From NCBI GenBank assembly GCA_965248695.1, contig CBDFKD010000002.1, forward strand, positions 4,416,001 to 4,480,000: DNA of 64,000 nucleotides, in the 5' to 3' direction. How positions within the stretch are numbered: position 1 is the stretch's first letter; the number at the start of each line of letters is the position of its first letter. Source of the stretch: Acidobacteriota bacterium. GTDB lineage: Bacteria; Acidobacteriota; UBA890; WLXD01. A program made the translations under genes and the position numbers. The notes under the pieces are model-generated. The model did no database searches. It saw only the letters and a list, made by a program, of their open reading frames with translations, and was not told the DNA's origin. Positions 16,105 through 64,000 of the stretch are shown here, one piece after another.

Positions 16105-17001
16105 ATGCCCACATCGTCGTTCCGTGAGCGCCCGCGGTCAGCGCGGACCGTCTGCGCCCTCGCTCTAGCTGTCGCGCTCGTATCTACTGCCTGTGCGGAT
16201 GCCGGGACACCGCAGCTGGACGTGCGGGTGCAGCTCGACCTGCCCGACAGCGTGCCGCTGGGCGAACCGCTGGACATCGGGTTCGCCTGGGAGACGGCCA
16301 GCGAGTTCGAGGCCCCCGCCGACGACTACAAGATCTTCGTTCACATGATCGATCCGGACGGCAACATCCTGTTGCAGGACGACCACTACCCACCGCAGCC
16401 GACCAGCCAGTGGCGCGCCGGCCAGACAGAGGGGTACAGGCGGTGGTATTACCCGCCCAACTCGCTCGAGGCGGAGTATCTGGATTTTGTCGTCGGGCTG
16501 TACTCGCCGGACTCCCGCGCCCGCGTGCGGGACGCCAACGGCGCCTGGGCCGAGGGCGTGCAGGTACATCGGATGACGGTGCGCTCCGACGACGTCTCGG
16601 GCATACCGCTCTACATGGAAGGCTGGCACCCACCGGAGCAGGTGGCGGAGCCGGAAGCACGTGAGTGGCGCTGGAGTCAAGAAAATGCACGTGCTGTGTT
16701 CACGAATCCGCGCAAGGAAGCAGTGTTGCATCTGCATGCTCATGGGCCGTTTGACGAGGTCGGGGCGCAGGCCGTCGTTCTGCGCATCGGCGAGGACGAG
16801 GTGGCGAGTGTCGCGGTCAGCAGTGCCGATGAGTTTCTCGAGCGCATCGTGATCCCTGCCTCGAGCATGGGCGACAACGAGTGGGTCGAGCTGAATCTCC
16901 AGGTGACGCCGGCGCTGGTGCCGCAAGAGATGGACCCGAGCTCCCAGGACGTTCGGCAACTGGGGCTACAAGTGTTCTCGATGTACCTGTCATCCTCCTG
17001 A
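16105..17001 (+). CDS. Hypothetical lipoprotein, probably two beta-sandwich domains
   Basis: GGAGGAG before ATG; lipobox 'VSTAC'; 'YKIFVHM.D..G....DDH.P..PTSQW' and 'GWH..E....WRWS' modules. Confidence 0.75.
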   Translation: MPTSSFRERPRSARTVCALALAVALVSTACADAGTPQLDVRVQLDLPDSVPLGEPLDIGFAWETASEFEAPADDYKIFVHMIDPDGNILLQDDHYPPQPTSQWRAGQTEGYRRWYYPPNSLEAEYLDFVVGLYSPDSRARVRDANGAWAEGVQVHRMTVRSDDVSGIPLYMEGWHPPEQVAEPEAREWRWSQENARAVFTNPRKEAVLHLHAHGPFDEVGAQAVVLRIGEDEVASVAVSSADEFLERIVIPASSMGDNEWVELNLQVTPALVPQEMDPSSQDVRQLGLQVFSMYLSSS

Positions 17002-17052
17002 AACGGCGGTGGGGCTGTCGTCTCAGTAGGGCAGGAGAGCAAGGAGTGGGAC

Positions 17053-18144
<1,092 letters not shown>

Positions 18145-18174
18145 GCCGCCCGAACCGAGCGACCTGATCGCGGC

Positions 18175-18333
18175 CTACGCGCCTGGCGCGCTACCGGGTC
18201 CCTGCGTCTTCTCTGGATGCTCGAACGTGGTGTCGCCGGTCGACATCACCTTGCGGAAGCAGAAGATCACCAGCCCGAAGATGAAGACCCAGGCGAGGAT
18301 CAAGAACGTCCAGCCTGCTGCGGTCATGCCCAT
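18175..18333 (-). CDS. 52-aa single-TM protein, MetS-like small subunit of the NSS transporter (missing from the ORF track)
   Basis: MGMTAAGWTFLILAWVFIFGLVIFCFRKVM...; GGAGGA 7 nt upstream; starts 15 nt after the transporter stop. Confidence 0.7.
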   Translation of the reverse strand: MGMTAAGWTFLILAWVFIFGLVIFCFRKVMSTGDTTFEHPEKTQGPGSAPGA

Positions 18334-18348
18334 GAGCGAGTCCTCCGG

Positions 18349-19929
18349 TTAGGCCGCATCGGTAGTCGAGTGGTTGCGCCAGGCGTAGGAAACGGCGAGG
18401 CAGAAGGCAAGGAAGATCCCGATCATCGTCAGCCGCGCGGCACGCACGTAGGGCACGAAGTCCGGGTTGACGCCCTGATAGCTCAGTACCGGCGGCAGGA
18501 TCTGGAAGATCCAGCTGCCGAGGATCACCAGCAGCATCGCCGGTGTGACGTACTTGATGATGAAGCGGAAGATCACCGGTACCTGCAGGTCGGCGCCGGT
18601 GGTGAGCTCGTTCCAGCCGCGGTCGATGCCGAACACCCAGGCGAACAGGATGATCTCGATGGTGGCGAACACAACCAGCCCGAACGTACCGGCCCAGAAG
18701 TCGAACTCGCTCAGGAACCCCTGCTGGTTGAAGAAGATCACCGGCTGGCAGCCGACGAACACCATCGCGCCGAGCACCATCGCGGCCTTCTGCCGCGTCA
18801 TGCGGTACTCCTCCTGCAGGAACGCCATGATCGGCTGGCCCATGGCCAGCGACGACGTGATGCCGGCGAAGAACAGCAAAGCGAACCACATGGTCCCGAA
18901 GAACTGTCCCGCCGGAATCTGTTGGAACAGCGTTGGCATGAGCGCGAACGGCAAGTCGAAGCCGCTGCTGGCAAGCTCCAACGTTCGATCAAGACCGAAG
19001 AAGGCGACGGCGGCGGGAATCGCCAATGTCCCACCGAGCACGACCTCGGCGAACTCGTTTGTCGCCGCTGTCGCCAGGCCCGTCAGCGCAACATCGTCTT
19101 TCTCGCGCAGGTAGCTGGCGTAACAGTGAATCGATCCCAGCCCGAGGCTGAGCGTGAAGAAGACTTGCCCGGCCGCCGCCAGCCATACGCTGGGGCTGGT
19201 GAACATGTCCGGTACCGGGTTCCACACGAACCCCATGCCGGCGCTGACGCTGTAGTCAGGGAGCGCCGGGTCCGGCGTCCCCAGCGTCAGCACCCGGATC
19301 ACCAGCACGATGGCGAACACGAACAGGGTCGGCAGGGCGATCTTGGCGATCGCTTCGATCCCACCGGACACGCCCTTGGAGAGAATCCAGACGTTGGCGC
19401 ACAACGTCACCAGGAACAGCACCCAGGCCCACGACACCGAGCTGAAATAGGTGAGTCCGGCACCGGACACAGCCGGATCACTCATGTCGATCGGGATGCC
19501 GTGGTAGCTGCGCAGGAACGCCAGCATGGGCTCGTATTCGGCGGCGCCCCAGTAGGATCCGGTGGCGGTGAAGATCGTGTAGCCGAGCGACCACGACTCG
19601 ATATAGGTGTAGTAGATCATCACCACGAGCGGCATGAACAGGCCAAGCACGCCGACGTACTTGGCCGCCGGGTGGTCCCAGATCCGCGCCATCATGCCGG
19701 GCGTAGAGGAGTGTCCGTAGCGGCCGCCGTAGCGCCCGATCGACCACTCCACCCACATCAACGGGATTCCCAGCAGCAGGAAGCAGATGAAGTAGGGGAT
19801 CATGAAGGCGCCGCCGCCGTTGGAGGCCGCCTGAACCGGGAAGCGCAGGAAGTTGCCCAGCCCCACGGCGTTTCCGGCCATCGCGAGGATCAACCCGACC
19901 CTCGTGCCCCAGCGTTCTCTGTCAGTCAT
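18349..19929 (-). CDS. Sodium-dependent transporter, NSS/SLC6 family (LeuT-like)
   Basis: 'RERW....GLILAMAGNAVGLGNFLRFP', 'GQVFFTLSLGLG', 'FFAGITSS'. Confidence 0.96.
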   Translation of the reverse strand: MTDRERWGTRVGLILAMAGNAVGLGNFLRFPVQAASNGGGAFMIPYFICFLLLGIPLMWVEWSIGRYGGRYGHSSTPGMMARIWDHPAAKYVGVLGLFMPLVVMIYYTYIESWSLGYTIFTATGSYWGAAEYEPMLAFLRSYHGIPIDMSDPAVSGAGLTYFSSVSWAWVLFLVTLCANVWILSKGVSGGIEAIAKIALPTLFVFAIVLVIRVLTLGTPDPALPDYSVSAGMGFVWNPVPDMFTSPSVWLAAAGQVFFTLSLGLGSIHCYASYLREKDDVALTGLATAATNEFAEVVLGGTLAIPAAVAFFGLDRTLELASSGFDLPFALMPTLFQQIPAGQFFGTMWFALLFFAGITSSLAMGQPIMAFLQEEYRMTRQKAAMVLGAMVFVGCQPVIFFNQQGFLSEFDFWAGTFGLVVFATIEIILFAWVFGIDRGWNELTTGADLQVPVIFRFIIKYVTPAMLLVILGSWIFQILPPVLSYQGVNPDFVPYVRAARLTMIGIFLAFCLAVSYAWRNHSTTDAA

Positions 19930-52531: not shown

Positions 52532-53272
52532 ATGGACGTGAGCTGGCGGCGCCTGCTCGACGCACGGATGGATCGTGAGCTGGTCGTCTGCGCTGTCTCC
52601 GAAGGTGTGGGCACGTTCGTGCTGACGTTCTTCGGCGCGGCGGTTATCTGCACCGACGCGTACAGCGGCGGGCAGGTCGGGCTCGTGGGCATCGCGCTGG
52701 CGCACGGGCTGGTTCTGGCGGCCATCGTTAGCGCGCTCGGCCACGTGTCCGGCGGGCACGTCAACCCCGCGGTGACGATCGGGGCGCTGCTCGTACGGGC
52801 GATCGACCCACCACGGGCGCTGGTATACATCGGTGCTCAGCTAGCGGGAGCGATGGTTGCTGCGCTGATGCTGGCGGCCACCTTCGGGGCCGATGTTTGG
52901 CAGCCGGTGCACCTGGGCGCGCCAGCGCTGGGCCCTGGTGTGGAAGCCGGGACGGGTGTGTTCATCGAGATGGTGCTGACATTCGTTCTGGTACTTGTGA
53001 TCTTGCAGATGGCGGCCGATCCGCGCGCCCCTCGGTATGTGCATGGGCTGGTGATCGGGGCCACGCTAGCCGCTGCGATCCTGGTCGGGGGGCCGCTGAC
53101 CGGCGCGGCGCTCAACCCCGCGCGCGCGTTCGGGCCCGCCCTCGCGGCCGGATACTGGACCGCGCACTACGTTTACTGGGTTGGACCGATACTTGGCGGT
53201 GTCGTCGCGGCGGTGCTGTACGGCTATCTCAGCGCCGCCCGATCAACCGATGTCGGCGAGGAAAGCGATTGA
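52532..53272 (+). CDS. Aquaporin (MIP family)
   Basis: 'SGGHVNPAVT' and 'LNPARAFGP'; about six TM helices. Confidence 0.95.
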   Translation: MDVSWRRLLDARMDRELVVCAVSEGVGTFVLTFFGAAVICTDAYSGGQVGLVGIALAHGLVLAAIVSALGHVSGGHVNPAVTIGALLVRAIDPPRALVYIGAQLAGAMVAALMLAATFGADVWQPVHLGAPALGPGVEAGTGVFIEMVLTFVLVLVILQMAADPRAPRYVHGLVIGATLAAAILVGGPLTGAALNPARAFGPALAAGYWTAHYVYWVGPILGGVVAAVLYGYLSAARSTDVGEESD

Positions 53273-54693
53273 AGAGAGCGGCGGTAGGGGCGCTTGCGGG
53301 GGTCGTGAGCCTGACCATGGCGGCAACGGCGTGCGCACCGACTGCCCCCGAGGTGCCCGTTCCGCAGCGGCTGGTACTCATCACGGTGGACACGTTGCGT
53401 GCCGATCACATGTCGAGCTTCGACTACCCGATCGCGACGACACCGTTCCTCGATCGACTCGCCGCCGAGGGGACGCTGTTCACCCGCGCCTACGCCCACT
53501 CTGCCACGACCAAGCCGTCGCACGCTTCGATGTTCACGTCGCTGTACCCGGTGCAGCATCGAGTGCAGAACAACGGCTTGGTGCTCGACGAAGAATTCGA
53601 AACCATGGCAGAGCTGATGGCTGCCGCCGGCTACGAGACCGCCGCCTTCGTCAGCATCGATGCGCCCTTGGGTGGGAACGTTCGGCAGGGTTTCGAGGTG
53701 TGGGATCAGCACCGCGTAAACCGCGATCAGGAAGAAGGTCGGAAGATGTACCGCGCTGCCGGAGACACCGTCGACCGCGCACTAGCGTGGATTGACGAGG
53801 TCACCGCAGAAGGCCGCGATCACTTTTTCCTATGGCTGCATGTCTACGATCCCCACAAGCCGCTTCAGCCGCCGGCCGATGTTCTGGAAGAGGTCGAAGG
53901 GATGATCGCGGCCCATGGCGAGCAGGCCTATCGAGATCTTCTGATCAGCCGTGGTATTCCGGTCGGTGACGATCAAGACGCTGCCCGCAACGCTGTAGCC
54001 GCCTACGATGCCGAGATTCTCTACGCCGACCGTCAACTGGCGCGATTGTTCTCCCACCTGGACGCGAGTGGGCTCAACGACGAGGCACTCTGGATCGTTA
54101 CCTCCGATCACGGGCAGGGACTCGGGGCACACGAATGGTTCGGTCACTCCAAGCAGATCTACAACGCTCAGCTCTGGGTGCCGTTGTTGTTCTGGCAGTC
54201 AGAAAGCCCGGTGGGAATTCGAATCAGCGAGCGTGTAGTCCAGCACGTCGACCTGCTGCCGACGATCAGCGGCGTGTTCGGACTCACACCCAACCAGATC
54301 ATGCCCATGCAGGGGCGCTCGCTGGAGCGATATCTCGTTGGTGGGCGTCCGCGCCAAGCCGGGTGGTTCGCGTTCTCCGAGCGGAGCCTCTACGAGAATG
54401 CGTCGAGCAGGAGGCAGCAGCGTGGCAACTACGAGTCCGGCGAGCGATACGCGCTCCAGGACATCGAGTACAAGTACATGCTCTATTCCGACGGTGACGA
54501 CGAGTTCTACGATCTGCGGACAGATCCCTACGAGCTCGTCAACATGATCGACTCCCCCGAGCTCGCCGAACGGCGCGACCAGATGCGCGACGTGCTCGCC
54601 GGGCTGCTGGAGAACATGCCGAGCGAACGCCAAGCGCAGACCGTATCGCCGGAGGATATCGACCGCCTGCGGGACCTCGGCTACATCCAGTAG
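53269..54693 (+). CDS. Sulfatase-like hydrolase/transferase, lipoprotein
   Basis: 'ITVDTLRADH', 'TKPSHASMFT', 'DPH', 'SDHG'; C-terminal 'RLRDLGYIQ'; TTG start overlaps the aquaporin stop. Confidence 0.88.
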   Translation: MKRAAVGALAGVVSLTMAATACAPTAPEVPVPQRLVLITVDTLRADHMSSFDYPIATTPFLDRLAAEGTLFTRAYAHSATTKPSHASMFTSLYPVQHRVQNNGLVLDEEFETMAELMAAAGYETAAFVSIDAPLGGNVRQGFEVWDQHRVNRDQEEGRKMYRAAGDTVDRALAWIDEVTAEGRDHFFLWLHVYDPHKPLQPPADVLEEVEGMIAAHGEQAYRDLLISRGIPVGDDQDAARNAVAAYDAEILYADRQLARLFSHLDASGLNDEALWIVTSDHGQGLGAHEWFGHSKQIYNAQLWVPLLFWQSESPVGIRISERVVQHVDLLPTISGVFGLTPNQIMPMQGRSLERYLVGGRPRQAGWFAFSERSLYENASSRRQQRGNYESGERYALQDIEYKYMLYSDGDDEFYDLRTDPYELVNMIDSPELAERRDQMRDVLAGLLENMPSERQAQTVSPEDIDRLRDLGYIQ

Positions 54694-55325: not shown

Positions 55326-56729
55326 GAGTTATTTGCAAATGTTGTGGATCGGTGGATTTGTTCAGGCGGCGTCTTCGCTAGCGATCAGGTGAACTCCATC
55401 GACGAATGTGGCGCCCTCGAGTACGAGGGCAGTGAGGTGAGGAGCGTTGATGCGGCGCCATCGTTGCTGTGCCATCTCCAGGAGCTTGAATGCCATCGTC
55501 AGCGCCTTGGTGCGTGAGCCGGCGCCCTTGGTGACGCGTTGTCTCAGGCGTACGGTGGCGAACGCCGACTCGATCGGGTTGGCCGTGCGCAGATGAACCC
55601 AGTGGTCGGCGGGGAAGTCGTAGAACGTCAGCAGCTTGTCGGAGTCGCGTTGCAACGACGCCACGGCCTTGGAGTACTTGGCGCCGTAGTCGGCTGCGAA
55701 CCGCGCCATGCCCTCCTGAGCATCCTCGCGCGTTGGCGCACCGATGATCTCGTGCAGCGCGCGCTTGGCTTTGGCCTGCAGCCGCCTCGGTAGCTTGTCG
55801 AGCACGTTGCCAAGCCGATGCACCCAGCATCGTTGCTCTCGAGTCTGGGGCCATACATCCCGCACCGCCGCCCAGAACCCCAGCGCCCCATCACCCACTG
55901 CCACGAGCGGCGCCCGCATGCCTCGACGCTTCAGCTCCCGGAGCACGAACGCCCAGCTCTCGGTGCTCTCTCGATACCCGTCCTCGACCGCGATGAGCTC
56001 CTTGGTTCCGTCCGGCAAAACGCCCAGGATCACCAGCGTGCACAGCCGATCATCCTCGAGTCGAATGTTGAAGTGCACACCGTCCGCCCACACGTATACG
56101 TACTGCTTGGTGGACAGATCCAGCTTCCGGAATGCCTCGTACTCCGTGCTCCAGGCGTTCGTCAGCCGGCAGATCGCCGATGCCGACAGCCCGCTGGCTT
56201 CCTGTCCCAGTAAGATCGGCAGCGCCTCCTTGAAGTCGCCCGTCGACAGGCCCCGCAGGTACAGCACCGGCAGCACCTCCGCCACCTTCGGCGAGCGCCG
56301 CATGTAGGGCGGCAGGATCCGACTGCTGAACCGCTGCCTCAGTCCCTGCTCGTCGAGCCGCTTGTCGTTGACCCGTGGCGCGGCTACTTGCACCGTCCCG
56401 CACCCCAACGTGATCTTGCGTGCGCGAGCCCGACCGTTGCGTACCACTTGCCGACGGCCGGCTTCATCCAGTTGCCCGGCGTGGCTCTGGATATACTCCT
56501 GAACCTCCCACTCCAGTGCTGTTGCCAGCATCTGCAGCGCGCCCTGCCGGGCGAGCTCATCGACGTCCAGTGTCAGCTGTCCTTCCTCCGCGTCCGATCC
56601 ACCGATAATCTTGAGCACGGGTGGCGTCTCCTTCCCGGCCTCCACAGCCGGCTGCTGGTTGTTGATGATCCCAGCGAAGGTTACGCCGCCTTTCTTTTTC
56701 CTCCCATCCACAACTTCCGGTTATATCTC
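55326..56729 (-). mobile_element. IS256-family insertion sequence
   Basis: Imperfect terminal repeats GAGTTATTTGCAAATGTTGTGGATCGG / GAGATATAACCGGAAGTTGTGGATGGG (19/27); no target duplication visible. Confidence 0.88.
55362..56618 (-). CDS. IS256 family transposase
   Basis: 'RNG', 'LYLRGLSTGD', 'WADG', 'GDGALG', 'QRCWVH', 'TANPIES'; AGGAG before GTG at 56618. Confidence 0.95.
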   Translation of the reverse strand: MLKIIGGSDAEEGQLTLDVDELARQGALQMLATALEWEVQEYIQSHAGQLDEAGRRQVVRNGRARARKITLGCGTVQVAAPRVNDKRLDEQGLRQRFSSRILPPYMRRSPKVAEVLPVLYLRGLSTGDFKEALPILLGQEASGLSASAICRLTNAWSTEYEAFRKLDLSTKQYVYVWADGVHFNIRLEDDRLCTLVILGVLPDGTKELIAVEDGYRESTESWAFVLRELKRRGMRAPLVAVGDGALGFWAAVRDVWPQTREQRCWVHRLGNVLDKLPRRLQAKAKRALHEIIGAPTREDAQEGMARFAADYGAKYSKAVASLQRDSDKLLTFYDFPADHWVHLRTANPIESAFATVRLRQRVTKGAGSRTKALTMAFKLLEMAQQRWRRINAPHLTALVLEGATFVDGVHLIASEDAA

Positions 56730-57397
56730 TGACCCACGCCAAAGGGGCGTTTGGGTGGGGCGTGAAGTTGAAGATGTTTGACTCCAACCCCGGTGCCGGC
56801 TTGGTGCCGCAATACGAGAAATCAGATCGCCGCGCACTGACCGAAGACGAGCGTAGCAAGGTCATCAACAACGCGGAGCATCGAGACTACTGGCTAGCCT
56901 ACCTATTCGCGGGTCTGAGGACATCGGAGTTTGCAGAGCTCCCGGTGGAGCACGTACACATCGACACACCGGGTCCGTATCTGTTCGTCATCGGCAAGGG
57001 CAACAAGGAACGCATCGTCCCTCTACAGGGTGCGCTCGCCGTCGGTCACTTCCGCAAACTCAGGGATGCTGCTGTGGTTCGCGGGGATTCGATGGTGTCG
57101 CCGGTTCGAGCAGCCACGTTGCAGAAATACTGGAAGAAGGATCGCGAGGCGCTAGGGCTTCCAAACGAGATCAAAATACACAACTTCCGGCACACCTACG
57201 GAACGTTCATGGCGCAGGAGGATGTGATTGGAACGCAGGCCGCGATGGGTCACGAGGACATCAAGACGACAATGGAATACGTGCATCAAGACGACCGGAA
57301 GATCCGCGAAGCATCGGCACAGTGGAGCGCAGTATTGAGTAGCGATACGCAGACTGATGTCACGAACTTGGCACTGGAGTCAGAAAAAGCCATATAG
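56730..57397 (+). pseudogene. Tyrosine integrase, 5'-truncated by IS256
   Basis: 'GLRTSE', 'GKG', 'HNFRH', 'GH', 'EYVH' all intact; the frame stays open back to the IS end ('THAKGAFGWGVKLKMFDSNP'). Confidence 0.85.
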
Positions 57398-57452: not shown

Positions 57453-58292
57453 CTAGATGGTGACGCCGAAGCGCCCCTTGAGCGCGAACGCGATGGCGAT
57501 GGTCAGCAAGAAGAAGACGATCAGCCAGTCCGTCTCGTAGCCGAAGAGGCCAACCGTACGGGTCGGGTAGATGACCTCGATCTCACTCACCGCGCCGTCG
57601 GCGGGTAGGGAAGACTCGGCCGGGTAGAGCAGCAGATTCACGAAGCCCGGCTGCAACCGGTAGGGCGCTCGGCGCACCACGGCGTCGGAAACCACCACCC
57701 GCTTGCTGACCTGCTGGCCGGCTATGTCGAACTCGACCTCGTAGTCGCCCGGGGCGTCGGCCACGATGCGCCAGGCCAGTTGATTGCGCGTCTGGATCCA
57801 CACCCGGGGGCTGTCGAGGCGCAGCCCGGCGGGCAACGTCAAGGTGGCCGCCGGCGGCTCGGCGCCCGGCGCATCGCCGGCGAGGGTCACCTGCAGGATG
57901 GTGCGCTCACCCGTCTCCAGGCCGCGGTACCCGTAGTGGAACTGCAGCTGCGCGATGACGAGCACAAACGGCACCATCATGAACACCATCGGCACGAGGT
58001 TGAGGCCGAGGTAGGTCATGTTGTTGCGCAGAATGCCGCCCTGAGCGCGCAATATCGCCACGATGTCGTCGTTGAACAGACGGATCTCGAACAACCCGGC
58101 GGCGATCTTGCGCTTCACGGCCTCGATGGCGGGCTGATTCGAGGTGGTGCGGTACCCGAGCAGCATGAGCACGGCGCATCCGACGGACACGAGAGTCAAC
58201 CCGATCATCGGGTGCAGCTGCTGGAAAGGCCGCAACACGACGTCGAATAGGAGACGCAAGACGCCGTTCACGGCGCCGAAGATGGCGTTCAT
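57453..58292 (-). CDS. Membrane protein resembling DUF106/EMC3/TMCO1 (Oxa1 superfamily) with an inserted beta-rich domain
   Basis: Amphipathic N-terminus, TM1, helical hairpin, 'NLVPMVFMMVPFVLV' TM2, about 130-aa beta-rich loop, 'WLIVFF' TM3. Confidence 0.6.
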   Translation of the reverse strand: MNAIFGAVNGVLRLLFDVVLRPFQQLHPMIGLTLVSVGCAVLMLLGYRTTSNQPAIEAVKRKIAAGLFEIRLFNDDIVAILRAQGGILRNNMTYLGLNLVPMVFMMVPFVLVIAQLQFHYGYRGLETGERTILQVTLAGDAPGAEPPAATLTLPAGLRLDSPRVWIQTRNQLAWRIVADAPGDYEVEFDIAGQQVSKRVVVSDAVVRRAPYRLQPGFVNLLLYPAESSLPADGAVSEIEVIYPTRTVGLFGYETDWLIVFFLLTIAIAFALKGRFGVTI

Positions 58293-58312
58293 GGCGGTCG
58301 GTGGTTATCCGG

Positions 58313-58507
58313 TCAGGAGATGTAGCCGAGGCCCTGGAGCTTCTTGCGGATCTCTTCCTCGGAGTCGGCCTCCTCGAGAACCGCGAGCTCCTTTTCGAGC
58401 GCGTAGGTGATGAACTCCTCGACCGATGAGTAGCCGGCGATGTCGGCATACTTCCTCACGCGATCGAGCAGCCCTGTATCGAGCTGGATCTTCCCGCCTC
58501 CGAACAT
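58313..58507 (-). CDS. Small ribbon-helix-helix-like protein with C-terminal LxxLGY tail
   Basis: 'KIQLDTGLLDRVRKYA...GYSSVEEFITYALEKEL' plus 'EEEIRKKLQGLGYIS'. Confidence 0.8.
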   Translation of the reverse strand: MFGGGKIQLDTGLLDRVRKYADIAGYSSVEEFITYALEKELAVLEEADSEEEIRKKLQGLGYIS

Positions 58508-58536
58508 CGTGGTTCTCCCGCCTAGAGCCCGCTGGG

Positions 58537-60555
58537 CTAGTTGGATTCAACCGTCACCGGAGCGCTGCCGTCCGGAAATCCGTCGATGCCGTATTCGGCC
58601 AGTAGCGCCGCCGCCAAGTTCTGCAACGACGAGGCCGAGCGCGTCAGCGCCCGGTTGGTCGCCAGAACGCCGGGTACGTCCGTCGGATCCCAGATGTGGG
58701 AGCCAGACCAGTCGTCAGTGTTGTAGGTGATGGATTCCGCTGCCAGCCCGCCGAGAGCGCCGTTGCCGGAACCGCGGAAACCTGGCGCATAGCCGACGAT
58801 CAGGTCGGGCCCGACCTCGAGGTGGCCGCGGTCGTGGAAGTCGCGGTCGCGTAGGAAGACCTTGGTGACTGCATGCTCGCCGGTCGCCGGATCGACGGTG
58901 GCGAGCAGGTCGCGCTCGAGCTGGAGGAGCAACTCCTCGCGATCGCCCGGTGCGACCGCCCCCTGCGGCTCTCGACCGCGAATGTTGAGATAAAGCGCGC
59001 TGATGCCGACGCTGTATGCCTGCGTCTCACGCCAGTCGACGCCGGTGAAGAACTCGCGCACGGGCAGGCGCGTGCGGCGTTGCAGCGCCATGTAGCCGTT
59101 CTCGTGCAGCCACGTATTCAGATGGAACGTTCGCCGCCAGCTGCCGAACCCGTGGTCCGACATGATCACCAGCAGCGTGTCGTCCGAGATCCGATCGAGC
59201 GTTTCACCGACAAGGGCATCGAACTCTGCGTAGACCTGCGGAAGGACGTCCTGATAGGGGTCATGGAGGTCGCTCACGTAGGCGGGGTGCTCGGGGTCCC
59301 GTGTCAGGCCCCACATGACGTGTGAGAGCTGGTCGACGCTGCCGAAGTACGAGAACAGGAAGCCACCGTCCCAGTCGTCTAGCAGGAGCTTGAATTGCGT
59401 CGTCGTTTCGGCGCGCGTCAATGCCACCTGCTCCAAGAACTCATCGATGTCGAAGACACCCCACTGGATTGCCTTGGTGTCCTGCGGCATCTCCTGGGTG
59501 TAGTAGCGGCCGGTGGCGTCTACGAGGTCACTCGCGAACGACTCCGGATGCGAGATCGGCGACGCCGGGTTGGCAGGGTCGATCTGTATCGGCGTCACGT
59601 AGAGGCCGAAGTCCGGGCGCAATGACTTCAAGTAGAAGCGCACGGCGCCGGAGATCGACATCACGTAGGGCACCAGGTCGAAGTCGACGCCGACCCACGG
59701 GCTCCATTCTCCGACCTGGAGGATGAGCTCCTGATCGTCGATGACGATCTTGGCGACCGCGCTGTCCGGATCGACGAACACTTCGAAGTCGGCGCCGACG
59801 GCGTCGGATTCCTCCAGCGTGAAGGGATTGTCGGGGAGGGCATAGAGGGTGCCGTTGAACTCCCCATCGATGAGGTCGGCGGGGTAAATGTTGCCGCCGG
59901 AAACGTCCGACTTCATGAACTGGCGCCTATCCGTCGAGAAGAACGTGAACTCACCGGGCGTGCCGCCGAGATCGGGGGTGCCCATGCCGGATAGCTCTCG
60001 GGTACCGACGCCTACCGGCGGGAAATTGGCCGGCATTCGCACCAGCGTCGTGTCGATGCCGGCGTCGCTCAGCAGCTGCCAGAAAGGGGTGCCGTAACGC
60101 GCCAGCCGGATCTCGCCGCCGCTAAGTGGGAAAACCCATCCCCCGAGGCTGATGGAACGACCCACGGGTGCTTCCTTGGTCATCGATTGATATGGCCAGC
60201 CGAAGGGCAGCGGCGGTTCTCGCTCCAAGTCGCGATGCAGGAAGTCGAAGATGCCGTGGCCGCCCGAGTCCAGGCCGGTGATGAAGTTGGACCAGGCGAC
60301 CGGGCTCTGAGGTGTGACCGACGTCTCCAGGGGACCGAACGACCCCGATTCCTCGAGGCGTTTGAAATTCGGTAAACGCCCGGCGTCGATGAGCTCCCGA
60401 GTGAGGGCGTAGTCGAGGCCGTCGATGCCTAGCACGATCATGTCGGGCCCAGCCGACGACGTGCCGCTGCTGCAGCTGGCGATCGTCGTCGCTGTCAGCA
60501 CGACGATCGAGGCGAAGATCATCGGCGACGAGATGCGCCGGCGGCCGAGGCTCAT
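58537..60555 (-). CDS. AlkP-superfamily (NPP/COG3379-like) enzyme, predicted lipoprotein
   Basis: Lipobox 'IASC'; 'GIDG', 'PQSPVAWSNFITG', 'SDHGF', 'WSGSH'; ATGA overlap. Confidence 0.88.
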   Translation of the reverse strand: MSLGRRRISSPMIFASIVVLTATTIASCSSGTSSAGPDMIVLGIDGLDYALTRELIDAGRLPNFKRLEESGSFGPLETSVTPQSPVAWSNFITGLDSGGHGIFDFLHRDLEREPPLPFGWPYQSMTKEAPVGRSISLGGWVFPLSGGEIRLARYGTPFWQLLSDAGIDTTLVRMPANFPPVGVGTRELSGMGTPDLGGTPGEFTFFSTDRRQFMKSDVSGGNIYPADLIDGEFNGTLYALPDNPFTLEESDAVGADFEVFVDPDSAVAKIVIDDQELILQVGEWSPWVGVDFDLVPYVMSISGAVRFYLKSLRPDFGLYVTPIQIDPANPASPISHPESFASDLVDATGRYYTQEMPQDTKAIQWGVFDIDEFLEQVALTRAETTTQFKLLLDDWDGGFLFSYFGSVDQLSHVMWGLTRDPEHPAYVSDLHDPYQDVLPQVYAEFDALVGETLDRISDDTLLVIMSDHGFGSWRRTFHLNTWLHENGYMALQRRTRLPVREFFTGVDWRETQAYSVGISALYLNIRGREPQGAVAPGDREELLLQLERDLLATVDPATGEHAVTKVFLRDRDFHDRGHLEVGPDLIVGYAPGFRGSGNGALGGLAAESITYNTDDWSGSHIWDPTDVPGVLATNRALTRSASSLQNLAAALLAEYGIDGFPDGSAPVTVESN

Positions 60556-62672
60556 GATCCGGACCCCTCGGCTGGGACGCTTTCGTTGAACAGCGGCCGT
60601 CCGTCCATGTACTTGGGGGTCGGGACGCCGAATTGCTGCAGTGCCGTAGGGGCAATGTCGATCAGCGACGGATCGTCCACGTCGATATCGCGATTGCAGA
60701 ACAACACGCCGGGGACCAGCCTCGGGTCGACGCAATGGTCGCCGCTCCAGGCCTTGACGTTGTCCTCGAACTGCGGCGCGTCGACCACACCGGTGGCACA
60801 GTCCCAAGACGTCCGATAGCCGCGGTTGTAGCCGATGACGAACTCGGGGGCGTTCTCGAGATAGGGGCCTTGATACAGCTTGGCAGTATCGAACGCCTGC
60901 ACGATGGCGATCTCGTCACGCTCCTCGTCGCGTAGTCCTCGAAGCTTGGCGCCAATCTCCGTCTTCAGCTCTTCGACGTCGGCGCGCTCGACGATGCCCT
61001 GCGATTCGCGTCCCTTGATGTTGAAGAACATCCCGGACAATCCGAGACAGTAGGCACGGGTGCGTGACCAGTCGACATCGCGAAGCCATTCGGCGGTACC
61101 GTCGGCGCCCTCTTTGAGAGCAAGGTACCCGTTGTCCATCAGCCAGCGGTTGAGGTTCACACCGCGGCGGAACGAGGTGAAGCCGTGGTCCGAAAGGACC
61201 ATCAGCAAGTCGTCCTCGGTGATCTTCTCCAGTACCTCTCCGACGAGCGCGTCGTTGCGCACGTAGAGCTCCTCGATGGTGTCGCGACAGTCGCTCTCGC
61301 TACCGTCGTCGGCAGGATGCCCCTTTTCGATATAGCGCCAGAACATGTGCTGGATGCGGTCGGTGGCGTCGAACACGCATACCAGGCAACCGCGTCGGAG
61401 ACGCTCCAGAGCCGAGAAGAACATGTCCTTGCGCTCGACATCGATGTCGAAGGTCAGCTGCTTGAAGTGATGATCGTCGATCACCTTCTCGTTCAGCGCC
61501 CAGGTGTCCTCGGCGAGCCCCAGCGTCGAGTACTTGCCCTGCATCTTTGACAGATACACGGCGTAATAATCCGGGTGGGAGATCGGCATTGCCGGGCGTT
61601 CGGGATCGAGAGCGATTGGCGTCATGTACATGGAAAAGTCGCCGTTCATCTCGGTCATCATGACGCGCGCGATGCCGCGCACCTTGACCCCGGGGGCGGC
61701 GGGGAACGTCAGCGACACCCAGTCGGAAATCTCTCCGATGGTCAGGTCGACGCTTTCGGTGCCGAAGGCGACCCGTGCCCGGTTCTCGGTGCGGTCGAGC
61801 TCGGCGATGATCGGCATCTCCAGCGGTGGGCTGTCTTTGCGGAGTATGTTCTCGGGGCCCCGCAGCGTGCCGGTGACTCGATCGCCATCCATGGTGACGG
61901 GAACTCGAAGTCCGCCCTCCTTGAACTTGCTGCTTTCCGGCCGCGTCGTGAAAAGCAAGAAGGTGCCTTGGGTGCCGAGCAGGTCCGGGACGCACATCGC
62001 CGACAGCTGGGCGCCGTAGAAACGGTCTGGCGGAAAGGTGATCGGCACGCGCAGGACGGTGCTCCAGATGTTGTGTTCGCCGAGCACGCTCCAGAACGGC
62101 TTGGACTTTCGCAACAGTCGCAGTTCGGGCTTCTCGAGCGGGATGCGGAACGGACCCAGGCTCAGGAAACGATCTACGGAGCCGATCTTGGTCGACGAAA
62201 GCACCGGCAGGTAGGTTCGGCGGTCCCGATCCAGGAAGTCATAGATGTTGTGGCGCGCCGGGTGGGAGCCGGTGGAGAACGACGACCAGGCAACGGGAGA
62301 GATCGACGGGAACGTCGTCTGGAGCGGCTTGTAGCAGCCCATGTCGGCGAGCTTCTTGAAGTTCGGCAGCTTGCCTTCGGCCATGAAACGGTCTGTGAGC
62401 TCGGGATCCTGTCCGTCGAATCCGACGACGATGAACCGCCGAATCTTCGGTGCCACTTTGGTGCGGCGGGTGACCGCGCGCCACAGCGTGCGGAATGGCC
62501 AGATCAGCAGCGACGCGAACACCGCCAGGATGGTGGTGAACAGCACCAGAAAACTGCTGATGAACGCGAATCCGGCGCCAGGACCGACGTAGGCGTGGGC
62601 AGTCAGTGGGATCAGGAAGACCATCAGTGTGGTCAGGATGAGGCACGATGCGAGCCGCAAGCGCACGTTCAC
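60552..62672 (-). CDS. AlkP-superfamily (NPP/COG3379-like) enzyme, membrane-anchored
   Basis: Signal peptide, 'AYVGPGAG', TM helix, basic stretch; 'GFDG', 'SISPVAWSSFSTG', 'DRIQH', 'SDHGF', 'WSGDH'. Confidence 0.9.
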   Translation of the reverse strand: MNVRLRLASCLILTTLMVFLIPLTAHAYVGPGAGFAFISSFLVLFTTILAVFASLLIWPFRTLWRAVTRRTKVAPKIRRFIVVGFDGQDPELTDRFMAEGKLPNFKKLADMGCYKPLQTTFPSISPVAWSSFSTGSHPARHNIYDFLDRDRRTYLPVLSSTKIGSVDRFLSLGPFRIPLEKPELRLLRKSKPFWSVLGEHNIWSTVLRVPITFPPDRFYGAQLSAMCVPDLLGTQGTFLLFTTRPESSKFKEGGLRVPVTMDGDRVTGTLRGPENILRKDSPPLEMPIIAELDRTENRARVAFGTESVDLTIGEISDWVSLTFPAAPGVKVRGIARVMMTEMNGDFSMYMTPIALDPERPAMPISHPDYYAVYLSKMQGKYSTLGLAEDTWALNEKVIDDHHFKQLTFDIDVERKDMFFSALERLRRGCLVCVFDATDRIQHMFWRYIEKGHPADDGSESDCRDTIEELYVRNDALVGEVLEKITEDDLLMVLSDHGFTSFRRGVNLNRWLMDNGYLALKEGADGTAEWLRDVDWSRTRAYCLGLSGMFFNIKGRESQGIVERADVEELKTEIGAKLRGLRDEERDEIAIVQAFDTAKLYQGPYLENAPEFVIGYNRGYRTSWDCATGVVDAPQFEDNVKAWSGDHCVDPRLVPGVLFCNRDIDVDDPSLIDIAPTALQQFGVPTPKYMDGRPLFNESVPAEGSGS

Positions 62673-63961
62673 TGGTCGTACTCCCGCTCCAGGTGGGCGG
62701 CGATATCCCCGATCCACAGGTCACCCTCGATGGGTCGAGGCGTCAACAGAAAGGCGTCGTCGTACGTGTGCATCCCCACGAGGTCGCTGCGTCCGAACAC
62801 CTCACCCGCCGCCGGAGACGCCTTGAGATCGAATCCGGGGAAAGCAAGGGCGACAAGGTCGGGACCGCCCGCTCTGCAGGGCCCCCGTTCGTAGACGTCC
62901 GCGGTGTCGAAAACGTCGCGGACGACCCGGTGCCCATCATACCGCAGCTGTTTGAGCGCGTCGGCGATCTCGGCTTTCAGCGCCGGCGCTTGCTCATCGC
63001 TGACGCTGCCGCGTCCGAACCGTGCAGTCCGATTCAGATAGATGCGGCTGGGATCGAGCGCGAAAGCTCGGCTGGTAGGCTCGATCGAGGTCAGGTCAGT
63101 GGGCGAATCTGCCGTCAGCGACAGATAACCGAGCTGTTTCAATGCGGCGTTCAGCTGCACTTCCTGACGGATGGCGCAGAAGCCGTGGTCCGACAGCATC
63201 CAGAAACGCGCCGCCGGCTCGGACTCCTCGGCAGCGAACCGGTCCCAGATGTCGCCGACGAACGTATCAACGGCGCGGTGGTAGTCGAGCGCCTGTGCAT
63301 GTCGCGGATGGTCGCTGTTCTGCAGCGCGTCCCAGAGATAGTGGTAGAGCCGATCGGTTCCGGTGACCACCACTTGAAGAAAACCCCAGTCGACCTCGTC
63401 CCACAGGCGCATGACGGCTTCGCGCCTTGTCTGCAGCGTCTGCCTGAGGTCCCGCATTAGCCAGTCGTGGTCCTTGCGGCTTCTCGCGGTATCGATATCG
63501 ATGCGGTAGTTCATGCGGCGCAAAGGACCCAGCCATCGCAACGGCTTGACGGAGCGGCTCAGGTCCACAGCGACGAAGCCAGAGACCATCACCCCTGGAA
63601 TCGCGCGCGCCGGGTAGGTCGCGGGTTGATTGAGGACGACAGAGGTGACGCCACGGCTGCCGAGCCGGTCCCATAGCGTCGGCACGCGAACGTCCGCAAA
63701 GCTGGGGAAGGTCAGGCGATAGGTCTGCGGCTCGATGTCCGTGAACCCGAAAATCCCGTGCGTACCTGGATCCACACCGGTCATGAAGCTCGACCAGCTC
63801 ACCGACGAGATTTCCGGCAACGAGGCCTTCATCGAGCGTAGGTGACCTTCGGCGATGCGCTCCGCCACGCGCGGCATGACGCCCTCGTGGGCCAGTCGGC
63901 GCAGCAGCTCCTCCGGGACTCCGTCGAGGCCGATCAAACAGAGCCGCTTATGTTCCGACAT
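62669..63961 (-). CDS. AlkP-superfamily (NPP/COG3379-like) enzyme, cytoplasmic
   Basis: No signal peptide; 'IGLDG', 'EISSVSWSSFMTG', 'DRLYH', 'SDHGF', 'GMH'. Confidence 0.9.
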   Translation of the reverse strand: MSEHKRLCLIGLDGVPEELLRRLAHEGVMPRVAERIAEGHLRSMKASLPEISSVSWSSFMTGVDPGTHGIFGFTDIEPQTYRLTFPSFADVRVPTLWDRLGSRGVTSVVLNQPATYPARAIPGVMVSGFVAVDLSRSVKPLRWLGPLRRMNYRIDIDTARSRKDHDWLMRDLRQTLQTRREAVMRLWDEVDWGFLQVVVTGTDRLYHYLWDALQNSDHPRHAQALDYHRAVDTFVGDIWDRFAAEESEPAARFWMLSDHGFCAIRQEVQLNAALKQLGYLSLTADSPTDLTSIEPTSRAFALDPSRIYLNRTARFGRGSVSDEQAPALKAEIADALKQLRYDGHRVVRDVFDTADVYERGPCRAGGPDLVALAFPGFDLKASPAAGEVFGRSDLVGMHTYDDAFLLTPRPIEGDLWIGDIAAHLEREYDQ

Positions 63962-63980
63962 TGGCGCCCCTTACGCTGGA

Positions 63981-64000
63981 TCAGAGATAGCCGAGTGACT
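63981..64000 (-). CDS. 3' end of an upstream gene ending '...SLGYL*' (partial)
   Basis: Minus strand reads (n)AG TCA CTC GGC TAT CTC TGA, 19 nt before the next start codon. Confidence 0.5.

Follow-up and report, generated by a model that had tools for sequence, protein, structure and literature searches.

We analyzed a 64-kb window from the genome of an Acidobacteriota bacterium (G000, contig C2, positions 4416001-4480000; coordinates given without a contig or locus are those of this window), which carries near its end a head-to-tail array of five minus-strand genes spanning positions 57453-63961. Three of these genes encode paralogous enzymes of the alkaline phosphatase (AlkP) superfamily, designated A, B and C, and they are followed by genes for a small ribbon-helix-helix (RHH)-like protein and for a membrane protein, designated Mem. 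In the order of transcription, the array and the gene end that precedes it are as follows.

63981-64000, minus strand: 3′ end of cysC, an adenosine 5′-phosphosulfate kinase gene that continues to window-equivalent position 64580, defined by its open reading frame and translation (PF01583, E = 4e-59)
62669-63961, minus strand: A, a PF01663 enzyme of 430 aa
60552-62672, minus strand: B, a PF01663 enzyme of 706 aa with a putative membrane hairpin; GTG start
58537-60555, minus strand: C, a putatively exported PF01663 enzyme of 672 aa and a paralogue of B; ATG start
58313-58507, minus strand: RHH-like small protein of 64 aa
57453-58292, minus strand: Mem, a membrane protein of 279 aa

The stop codon of A (TGA, 62671-62669) overlaps the start codon of B (GTG, 62672-62670) in the tetranucleotide GTGA, and the stop codon of B (TGA, 60554-60552) similarly overlaps the start codon of C (ATG, 60555-60553) in ATGA. 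Lists of open reading frames offer upstream-extended frames of 721 aa for B and 756 aa for C; the overlapping starts were preferred because the N-termini of homologous proteins have the corresponding length. These coordinates and overlaps, together with the family matches given below, confirm the five-gene minus-strand set with three linked paralogues that was described in an initial annotation of this DNA, except that the last 20 bases of the window (63981-64000), within the span given there, are not part of A and belong to the end of cysC. Each of the three enzymes exceeds the PF01663 cut-off of 23 bits, with scores of 106.6 bits for A (E = 2.7e-30, spanning residues 7-401), 101.8 bits for B (E = 7.8e-29) and 101.6 bits for C (E = 9.1e-29), and C is 35-36% identical to B. 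The NCBIfam models return only sub-threshold PhnA matches for the three proteins, and B and C match PF01663 instead of the EptA and LtaS models.

A scan of species-representative genomes with a profile of B yielded at least 556 relatives, from which 80 loci were retained. These loci were found partly through a motif in the N-terminal hairpin of B, which served as one of the scan patterns, and the depositor labels of the uncultured genomes are taken as given; they include Acidobacteriota (several classes), Gemmatimonadota, Planctomycetota (Phycisphaerae), Calditrichaceae, Spirochaetia, Aminicenantes, Eisenbacteria and others. Genes for RHH and Mem follow B in 66 of the 80 loci, with C present in 57 of these and absent from 9, and among loci where the DNA extends 3.6 kb or more past B, 62 of 63 have both. 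The conserved unit is B-(C)-RHH-Mem; A, which occurs in only 8 of the 80 loci, is an accessory gene and not part of the module core. The conserved five-gene order foreseen in the initial annotation is thus borne out for B-(C)-RHH-Mem, whose genes are syntenic in other genomes, but not for A.

Related genomes give a similar picture. B-like matches with E values of at most 1e-20 are present in 49 of 61 such genomes (a count that includes G047, where the match is a weak paralogue only). Among 20 loci drawn from these relatives, B, C and Mem occur in order in 15, and 14 of those 15 have an RHH match; A directly precedes B in 7 of the 20, with cysC before A in 5 of the 7, and the remaining five loci contain lone secreted paralogues or a Sat-A′-CysC string. 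Mem is found in 30 of the 61 genomes, 29 of which have a B orthologue, the contig of the thirtieth beginning inside C, and the three B-positive genomes with no Mem match are 75-83% complete. Mem itself has 1510 relatives at E values of at most 1e-5, some of which are labeled 'DUF106 family' in JGI records, and the RHH family comprises 953 cluster representatives at E values of at most 0.001.

The module is genetically tied to sulfation that depends on 3′-phosphoadenosine 5′-phosphosulfate (PAPS). A gene for a sulfotransferase of about 205 aa recurs beside B, its product scoring above the cut-offs of both PF13469 and PF00685 (at locus L081, 43.1 bits against a cut-off of 27 and 28.5 bits against a cut-off of 22, respectively). 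By tblastn, this gene is present in 48 of the 80 loci, in 45 of which it is divergently oriented and lies within 1.5 kb of the start of B. Genes for CysC or Sat occur in 19 of the 80 loci and a PF01507 gene, which we read from its sequence as CysD-like, in five; at least one sulfation gene is found in 53 of the 80, as counted in the DNA available at each locus. The sulfotransferase is likewise found in 25 of the 30 Mem-positive relatives versus 4 of the 31 others, and CysC in 26 of the 30, the four misses being genomes that are 55-81% complete. The association extends to gene fusion. Of 26 longer relatives of A, 22 combine a sulfotransferase domain with PF01663, in the order sulfotransferase, hydrophobic helix, A-H-A-Y-V-G-P-G-A-G, second helix, arginine-rich stretch and B-type catalytic domain. 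Sequence searches of the PDB found no relatives of the sulfotransferase, and NCBIfam provides no name for it, for the RHH2 protein or for the DUF2061 proteins described below. Literature searches on AlkP, sulfotransferase and PAPS, on Acidobacteriota sulfation, on sulfated lipids in these phyla, on bacterial homologues of EMC3 or TMCO1 and on operons that pair a sulfotransferase with an alkaline phosphatase (article supplements were not covered) returned no published description of the module, and a search for 'COG3379' retrieved a single irrelevant paper.

The fusions also bear on the compartments in which the enzymes are likely to reside. A has no signal sequence or hydrophobic N-terminus and is taken to be soluble and cytoplasmic. 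B begins with MNVRLRLASCLILTTLMVFLIPLTAHA / YVGPGAGFAF, which is followed by a hydrophobic helix and then by RTLWRAVTRRTKVAPKIRR; its first 77 residues (62442-62672) comprise a transmembrane helix (TM1), a loop, a second transmembrane helix (TM2) and a basic stretch, with eight lysine or arginine residues after TM2 in the protein encoded in the window. The loop, A-Y-[VI]-G-P-G-A-G (62571-62591), is invariant in all 13 B sequences found by similarity, each of which keeps Y28, G30, P31, G32, A33 and G34. Because a sulfotransferase domain that needs PAPS precedes TM1 in the fusions, and because the charge bias fits, we infer that the two helices probably form a hairpin and that the catalytic domain of B is cytoplasmic. 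A cleaved signal peptide was rejected as the sole reading of the B N-terminus, since the sulfotransferase-B fusions favor an uncleaved hairpin, at least in the fusions themselves. C has a signal that ends in TIAS-C28, with Cys28 as the lipobox cysteine, and across 83 C-type sequences the N-terminus shows a lipobox in 55, a twin-arginine (Tat) motif in 13 and a different hydrophobic, signal-like stretch in 15. The placement of the enzymes in different compartments that was proposed in the initial annotation therefore agrees with the locations predicted for them from sequence, A having no signal, the B domain being read as cytoplasmic and C carrying lipobox or Tat signals.

The serine at the expected nucleophile position and the SDHGF motif that the initial annotation had noted are present in all three enzymes, the first within S-S-V-S-W-S in A and within S-P-V-A-W-S in both B and C. 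Alignment by HMMER of an A-family profile with the nucleotide pyrophosphatase/phosphodiesterase (NPP) of Xanthomonas (PDB 2gsn) agrees with this assignment, pairing 'PeissvsW' with 'PSLTFPNH' and SDHGF with SDHGM, such that the first serine of the motif falls in the region of the nucleophilic threonine. In A, Ser52 occupies the nucleophile position and is accompanied by the metal-ligand motifs GLDG, GTDRLYH, SDHGF and GMHTYD, an assignment that also draws on invariant alignment columns; the corresponding residues are Ser125 in B (codon 62298-62300) and Ser84 in C (codon 60304-60306). Residues D86, S125, D438, H442, D495, H496 and H646 are invariant in the 13 B sequences. The catalytic domain of B also holds a beta-rich insertion of about 230 aa that is common to C.

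Single-sequence searches of the PDB with A and with B gave no useful match, and the ESM Atlas returned only generic 'alkaline phosphatase family' clusters. An AlphaFold2 (AF2) model of B (predicted local distance difference test score, pLDDT, of 75) was matched by Foldseek to SPAP, PhnA, Xac NPP, ENPP1 and PafA, with E values from 2e-9 to 7e-8 and target-normalised TM scores of up to 0.62. The NPP, PhnA and PafA hydrolases (2gsn, 3szy and 5tj3) have the fold, metal-ligand motifs and nucleophile position seen in B, but their identity to B is approximately 10-13%, and B and C add the insertion of about 230 aa, and B the membrane hairpin. Two-metal enzymes of the AlkP fold that use a Ser/Thr nucleophile catalyze phosphoryl transfer, and members of the superfamily that transfer sulfuryl groups efficiently do so with formylglycine. 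B and C are accordingly expected to cut or move P-O bonds in something linked to sulfation, and not to carry sulfate on serine.

The initial proposal of a relay in which three paralogues pass on a phospho or sulfo group is supported only in part. The synteny, the separate predicted compartments, the PAPS genes and the family of Mem agree with it, but A is an accessory gene, and on chemical grounds a relay through covalent sulfo-enzymes is less probable. The AlkP-type enzymes need not carry sulfate, because a conventional PAPS-type sulfotransferase usually adjoins B or is fused to it. EptA/MCR-1, LtaS, OpgB and BcsG provide another comparison, as they share with B the AlkP fold, a Ser/Thr nucleophile and an inner-membrane tether. 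Enzymes of the EptA/LtaS type modify envelope molecules with lipid-borne donors, thereby bypassing the lack of nucleotide donors outside the cell. They belong to PF00884 and have a polytopic anchor and a periplasmic domain, whereas B belongs to PF01663, has a two-helix hairpin and is read as cytoplasmic, and we know of no paired inside and outside paralogues, RHH partner or Oxa1-like protein among them.

Upstream of A, on the same strand and outside the window, lie cysC, a 278-bp element, sat, RHH2 (71 aa) and a cysQ-like gene. The product of sat matches ATP sulfurylase with an E value of 1.9e-99, and the cysQ-like gene belongs to the inositol-monophosphatase family. A complete set of genes for PAPS synthesis and for recycling of 3′-phosphoadenosine 5′-phosphate (PAP) shares one string with the five genes; the initial annotation had suggested looking upstream for PAPS-synthesis genes, and cysC, sat and the cysQ-like gene were found there, directly adjoining the array. 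In other genomes A co-occurs with sat and cysC, and at locus L102 a single frame of 878 aa (16116-18752) encodes a complete ATP sulfurylase (584 bits, with a cut-off of 387) joined to an A-type PF01663 domain (E = 3.4e-48).

A comparable association has been described in archaea. According to a study of a Pyrococcus pApase, genes for copG, ATP sulfurylase, a DHH pApase, a type I phosphodiesterase/NPP and adenosine 5′-phosphosulfate (APS) kinase lie together in a cluster that archaea conserve, exemplified by PYCH_17520-17560 of Pyrococcus yayanosii, and the PF01663/NPP gene is speculated there to remove pyrophosphate (PPi) (PMC8268124). The CopG/RHH-type gene, sat, PAP phosphatase, cytoplasmic PF01663 enzyme and cysC of that cluster correspond to RHH2, sat, the cysQ-like gene, A and cysC here. 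The PAP phosphatase is of the CysQ (inositol-monophosphatase) type here but of the DHH type in archaea, and the archaeal cluster is without a membrane-anchored B, an exported C or an Oxa1-like protein. We regard the upstream half of the locus as the bacterial counterpart of the archaeal PAPS cluster, and the parallel suggests that a small CopG-like protein and a PF01663 enzyme form a recurring couple. Thus, A is more likely to be an enzyme of the supply arm than the first station of a relay, because it is confined to a minority of loci, travels with sat and cysC, is fused to Sat at one locus, and has this archaeal parallel.

Two further features of these loci can be recorded. The 278-bp element between sat and cysC (window-equivalent 64596-64873; 10596-10873 in L001) has perfect 34-bp terminal inverted repeats and looks like an insertion within the operon that resembles a miniature inverted-repeat transposable element (MITE); the gap between sat and cysC is about 60 bp in a relative of the same genus (L018), and the 34-bp repeat arm recurs elsewhere in the genome at three sites, two of which lie 532 bp from each other near C2:4669337. 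Locus L102 also contains a methyltransferase gene after Mem, two GT4 glycosyltransferase genes, a GH39 gene and two sulfatase-like genes whose products carry the C-terminal tail described below.

The supply-arm data also invite a reading in which the PF01663 enzymes clear by-products, with A-type enzymes removing PPi produced by Sat, B removing PAP at the membrane, C cleaning up or salvaging outside, and Mem inserting the hairpin of B. Each type of fusion does pair PF01663 with an enzyme whose inhibitory by-product it could remove, whether Sat or the sulfotransferase; the fold and motifs are those of the NPP, PhnA and PafA hydrolases; and the archaeal cluster has already been read in this way, with PPi degradation speculated for its PF01663 enzyme (PMC8268124). 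With the sulfotransferase in the cytoplasm, however, no PAP would be expected outside for C to act upon, yet C is the closest paralogue of B and shares its insertion. In addition, a cysQ-like PAP phosphatase is already present in the cluster, and a hydrolase would need neither so strict a linkage between B, RHH and Mem nor a conserved hairpin loop. We consider by-product clearance an unlikely account of the whole module.

The assignment of Mem proceeds mainly from a profile of 26 homologues, which matches PDB entry 5c8j ('Protein MJ0480') with an E value of 4.2e-11 over TM1, a coiled coil and TM2. PF01956 is matched by 11 of these 26 homologues (best E = 3.1e-06), and a Pfam search with the Mem of the window itself gave no match. 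The AF2 model of Mem (pLDDT of 89.9; helices at residues 28-50, 53-72, 77-120 and 256-271) has as its best VIA match among 48,161 chains 7tut_8 (Z = 8.9, root mean square deviation of 3.2, 136 aligned residues), chain 8 of a multipass translocon, which we take to be TMCO1; EMC3 (6ww7_C) and YidC (3wo7_A) are matched with Z = 7.3 each. Such Z values are common for helical models and insufficient alone, and it is the sequence match to MJ0480 that decides. On this evidence Mem is assigned to the DUF106/Ylp1 branch of the Oxa1 superfamily, and the profile, PF01956 and VIA matches agree with the DUF106-like or Oxa1-like label given to it in the initial annotation.

The predicted architecture of Mem, with three transmembrane helices and a cytoplasmic coiled coil separating the first two, is that of Ylp1/MJ0480, EMC3, TMCO1 and GET1. 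Between TM2 and TM3, a beta-sandwich of some 130 residues (approximately 125-255) is predicted; Foldseek finds only weak Ig-like matches to this middle domain (best E = 7e-4), and by homology the loop that holds it would lie on the outer side. Mem thus differs from this family, as described in the available portions of the literature, in being bacterial, in its Ig-like outer-loop domain, and in belonging to an enzyme operon rather than acting as a general insertase. DUF106 proteins are described as archaeal and eukaryotic in the part of the literature at hand (PMC5868721), and members with three transmembrane helices are described, in the accessible part of a preprint, as pairing with a partner through the exposed face of the last helix (bioRxiv 10.1101/2020.12.20.422553). 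By analogy with the pairing described in that part of the preprint, the hairpin of B could be the partner of Mem. No longer forms of Mem were found, which is weak evidence. Beside Mem, a GT2 glycosyltransferase gene (PF00535, E = 1.7e-16) occurs in 9 of the 80 loci (L083-L085, L097 and five more), in several directly after Mem. At locus L092 (12176-13227), the RHH frame continues into Mem, and Mem is broken over three frames, which represents either a decaying copy or an assembly error.

The RHH protein is the best conserved member of the module, with identities of 52-84% among 29 sequences drawn from several phyla. Residues G25, Y26, S28, E31, E40 and G59-L60-G61-Y62 are invariant, and several of them lie in a turn, G25-Y26-S-S28, or in the C-terminal tail K-K-L-Q-G-L-G-Y-I-S. 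Pfam and NCBIfam searches gave no family match at E values of at most 0.1; the RHH designation comes from a strand-helix-helix pattern read by eye, and the pLDDT of the protein is 75-77 in the predicted complex described here. Complex prediction was carried out with B residues 78-706, Mem and RHH, each supplied with an alignment and with RHH treated as the partner. The RHH complex scored 0.62, versus 0.00 for the best of three controls; by approximate counts, the score mark is reached by 58 of 80 solved complexes versus 2 of 110 mismatched pairs. Contact agreement among the runs was at least 89%, and the partner pLDDT was at least 75. Because the score falls to 0.00 when an unrelated protein takes the place of B, the predicted contact is with B and not with Mem.

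In the model, the interface is formed by the G-Y-S-S turn and tail of RHH and, on the B side, by a surface beside the catalytic motifs. Invariant residues make up 24 of 40 positions at the B interface versus 123 of 589 elsewhere in B, and 8 of 22 versus 2 of 42 in RHH. RHH is thereby predicted to dock on the conserved active-site face of B. One in-frame B-RHH fusion, P0266, was found among the best 150 of the 953 RHH-family representatives; three further candidates (P0156, P0157 and P0174) were rejected, as they resemble artefacts of frameshift or open reading frame extension. A protein of 113 aa, P0151, consists of two tandem RHH-like repeats and has the LGY tail on the second only. The predicted arrangement recalls the ParD, CcdA and RelB antitoxins, in which a small RHH protein lays its C-terminal part over a partner, as RHH may do on B. 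Unlike these type II antitoxins, RHH has no Pfam antitoxin match, its predicted partner is an AlkP-type enzyme and not a toxin, and its tail is also present on CysC.

The distribution of this tail was examined by searching for L-x-x-L-G-Y-[ILVM] followed by 0-3 residues at the C-terminus. In the genome under study, it ends 15 of 56,416 open reading frames of at least 60 aa, of which about 12 are clear by eye, namely nine AlkP/sulfatase-like proteins, CysC (RLESLGYL), RHH and RHH2. In the 80 loci, it is present on 98 of 13,827 open reading frames, including 67 RHH proteins, four CysC proteins, one PF01507 protein, DUF2061 proteins and many sulfatase-like proteins, with tailed sulfatase-like genes occurring in 21 of the loci. 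The tail is a genome-wide mark of the AlkP/sulfatase-like class. Nine further AlkP/sulfatase-like frames elsewhere in the genome end in R-x-L-G-Y-[IL]-[QR] and include C2:210463-213537, 1253900-1255360, 1262328-1264823, 2731097-2732689, 2847948-2852232, 4117054-4118481 and 5271469-5274048. In two distant genomes, small tailed (LGYL) DUF2061 membrane proteins adjoin B or cysC, at L102 (9608-9907, E = 1.8e-18) and L088 (5996-6478, E = 1.5e-11). The Pfam model DUF7210 matches two Gemmatimonadota-type sulfatase-like tails weakly (19.7 and 17.2 bits; cut-off of 27) and none of the CysC, RHH or other tails, and was not used. An encapsulin- or sortase-type C-terminal signal was also rejected, as no transmembrane segment follows the tail.

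Within the window, a further tailed protein is encoded beyond the downstream border of the module, where the following features occur.

55362-57397: IS256-family transposase (score of 281 bits, cut-off of 150) together with a tyrosine-recombinase fragment of 211 aa, directly 3′ of Mem
52897-54693, plus strand: sulfatase-like AlkP-superfamily lipoprotein (PF00884, E = 9.4e-48), with a probable start near 53278

The truncated tyrosine-recombinase gene and the IS256 transposase form the border itself and part the sulfatase-like gene, at most a possible member here, from the module. The product of this gene ends in LRDLGYIQ, and its NCBIfam sulfatase matches are all below cut-off. The canonical formylglycine motif is C/S-x-P-x-R. 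In HMMER alignments with 4uph and 2w8s, the protein has T-K-P-S-H where sulfatases have C-x-P-x-R, and it was rejected as a formylglycine sulfatase, given a threonine and not Cys/Ser at the formylglycine position.

The occurrence of one tail on RHH, on PAPS-making enzymes and on sulfatase-like proteins would be covered if the tail docks on B inside the cell and on its paralogue C outside, as proteins on both sides of the membrane could then use it. One extension of this idea holds that the chemistry is directed at proteins: RHH and the tailed proteins might be substrates or carriers, modified by the sulfotransferase, by B or by both at an invariant Tyr or Ser (Y26, S27/S28 or Y62 of RHH), or the tail might serve as a tag by which PAPS-making enzymes dock on B inside and Thr-type AlkP enzymes on C outside. 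It draws on the high conservation of RHH, on the rarity and specificity of the tail in both searches, and on the composition of the modeled RHH-B interface, in which the invariant turn and the LGY tail lie beside the catalytic motifs of B. Nevertheless, it relies on a single predicted complex, no such modification is known, and a plain autoregulator would also show an RHH fold and a partner-binding C-terminal tail; we judge it to be very unlikely. The other extension is a two-sided sulfation machine, in which PAPS enzymes docked on B by their tails would, with the sulfotransferase, load a carrier that Mem passes across the membrane and from which C and Thr-type AlkP enzymes would deliver the group to the envelope. 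The group might be an activated sulfo or phospho-sulfo group on a lipid, or it might be borne by tyrosines of the tailed proteins themselves. Such a machine, which at present seems quite improbable, would answer the absence of PAPS outside the cell.

A simpler view would be that A, B and C are ordinary, partly redundant esterases that scavenge phosphorus or sulfur, with RHH as a local repressor and with the proximity of sulfur genes reflecting shared nutrient regulation. The genome is rich in AlkP-superfamily genes, with 36 PF01663-scoring stretches; a sulfatase-like gene, a MIP channel gene and a metallophosphoesterase gene lie nearby; and RHH proteins are usually repressors. Scavenging enzymes are exported, however, whereas we place the B domain in the cytoplasm, and in other organisms it is joined to a PAPS-dependent sulfotransferase. 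Moreover, the four-gene order is kept across phyla, and RHH is predicted to bind B, in a model whose score does not survive replacement of that enzyme. Taken with these points, scavenging appears to us a most improbable explanation.

Gene content, synteny, fusions, family memberships and signal types are observed, and the binding of RHH to B is supported by a model; in the pathway favored here, to which we assign a probability of roughly 40%, we infer how B is oriented, what Mem does, which type of substrate is used and how each catalytic step proceeds. It would be a PAPS-dependent pathway that acts on a membrane or envelope substrate at both faces of the inner membrane, in which the sulfotransferase and B·RHH would work on the cytoplasmic side, Mem within the membrane and C on the outer side, while A contributes to supply. 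The supply arm, consisting of the products of the cysQ-like gene, RHH2, sat, cysC and A, would make PAPS and clear its by-products, with A as a helper enzyme, for example a PPi or nucleotide hydrolase. B would be tethered at the inner membrane face by its two-helix hairpin, with RHH docked on its active-site face, and a membrane-bound substrate that contains phosphate would be acted on there, on the cytoplasmic side, by the sulfotransferase and B in sequence. Mem would let the substrate, or the hairpin of B together with the substrate, reach the outer face, functioning as an insertase or through a scramblase-like groove, and C, as an exported lipoprotein, would handle the same chemical group outside.

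Several observations weigh against this pathway. None of the module's members has a known substrate, product or activity, and Mem could merely insert the hairpin of B. CysC is also present in 17 of the 31 genomes that do not have the module and alone discriminates little; 27 of the 80 loci have no sulfation gene in the DNA examined; and the sulfotransferase query is unmatched in 5 of the 30 Mem-positive genomes. The hairpin motif is present in 79 of the 80 scan loci, a count that is circular given that the motif was itself a scan pattern, and the related genomes are non-independent samples, for which counts are given with no statistical test. The RHH-B prediction used our own shallow alignments, three chains and a monomeric RHH, and its calibration counts are only approximate; in addition, conservation is to be expected around an active site in any case, so that the enrichment of invariant residues at the interface carries less weight. 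Finally, the sulfotransferase is unlinked in the genome studied here, the homologue being 54% identical and located about 3 Mb away (C2:1499953-1500552). This homologue adjoins a mevalonate-like gene set (C2:1490950-1500552) with isopentenyl phosphate kinase-, mevalonate kinase- and HMG-CoA reductase-like members, as identified by eye, a neighborhood that may point to an isoprenoid acceptor.

At this locus, one lineage has joined a widespread membrane module to a PAPS-supply arm. The module is common in poorly studied phyla, and its gene set is a concrete, testable candidate for sulfation of the envelope outside the cytoplasm, where PAPS is unavailable. The assignment of Mem would mean that the archaeal and eukaryotic DUF106 branch of the Oxa1 insertases has bacterial members that have been recruited to an enzyme operon, and two new leads emerge, the predicted B-RHH pair and a short motif at the C-terminus shared by functionally related proteins that lie on either side of the membrane. 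Even if A-type enzymes prove to be helpers of PAPS synthesis, or B a partner of the sulfotransferase, the label 'alkaline phosphatase family protein' that such enzymes now carry would be corrected.

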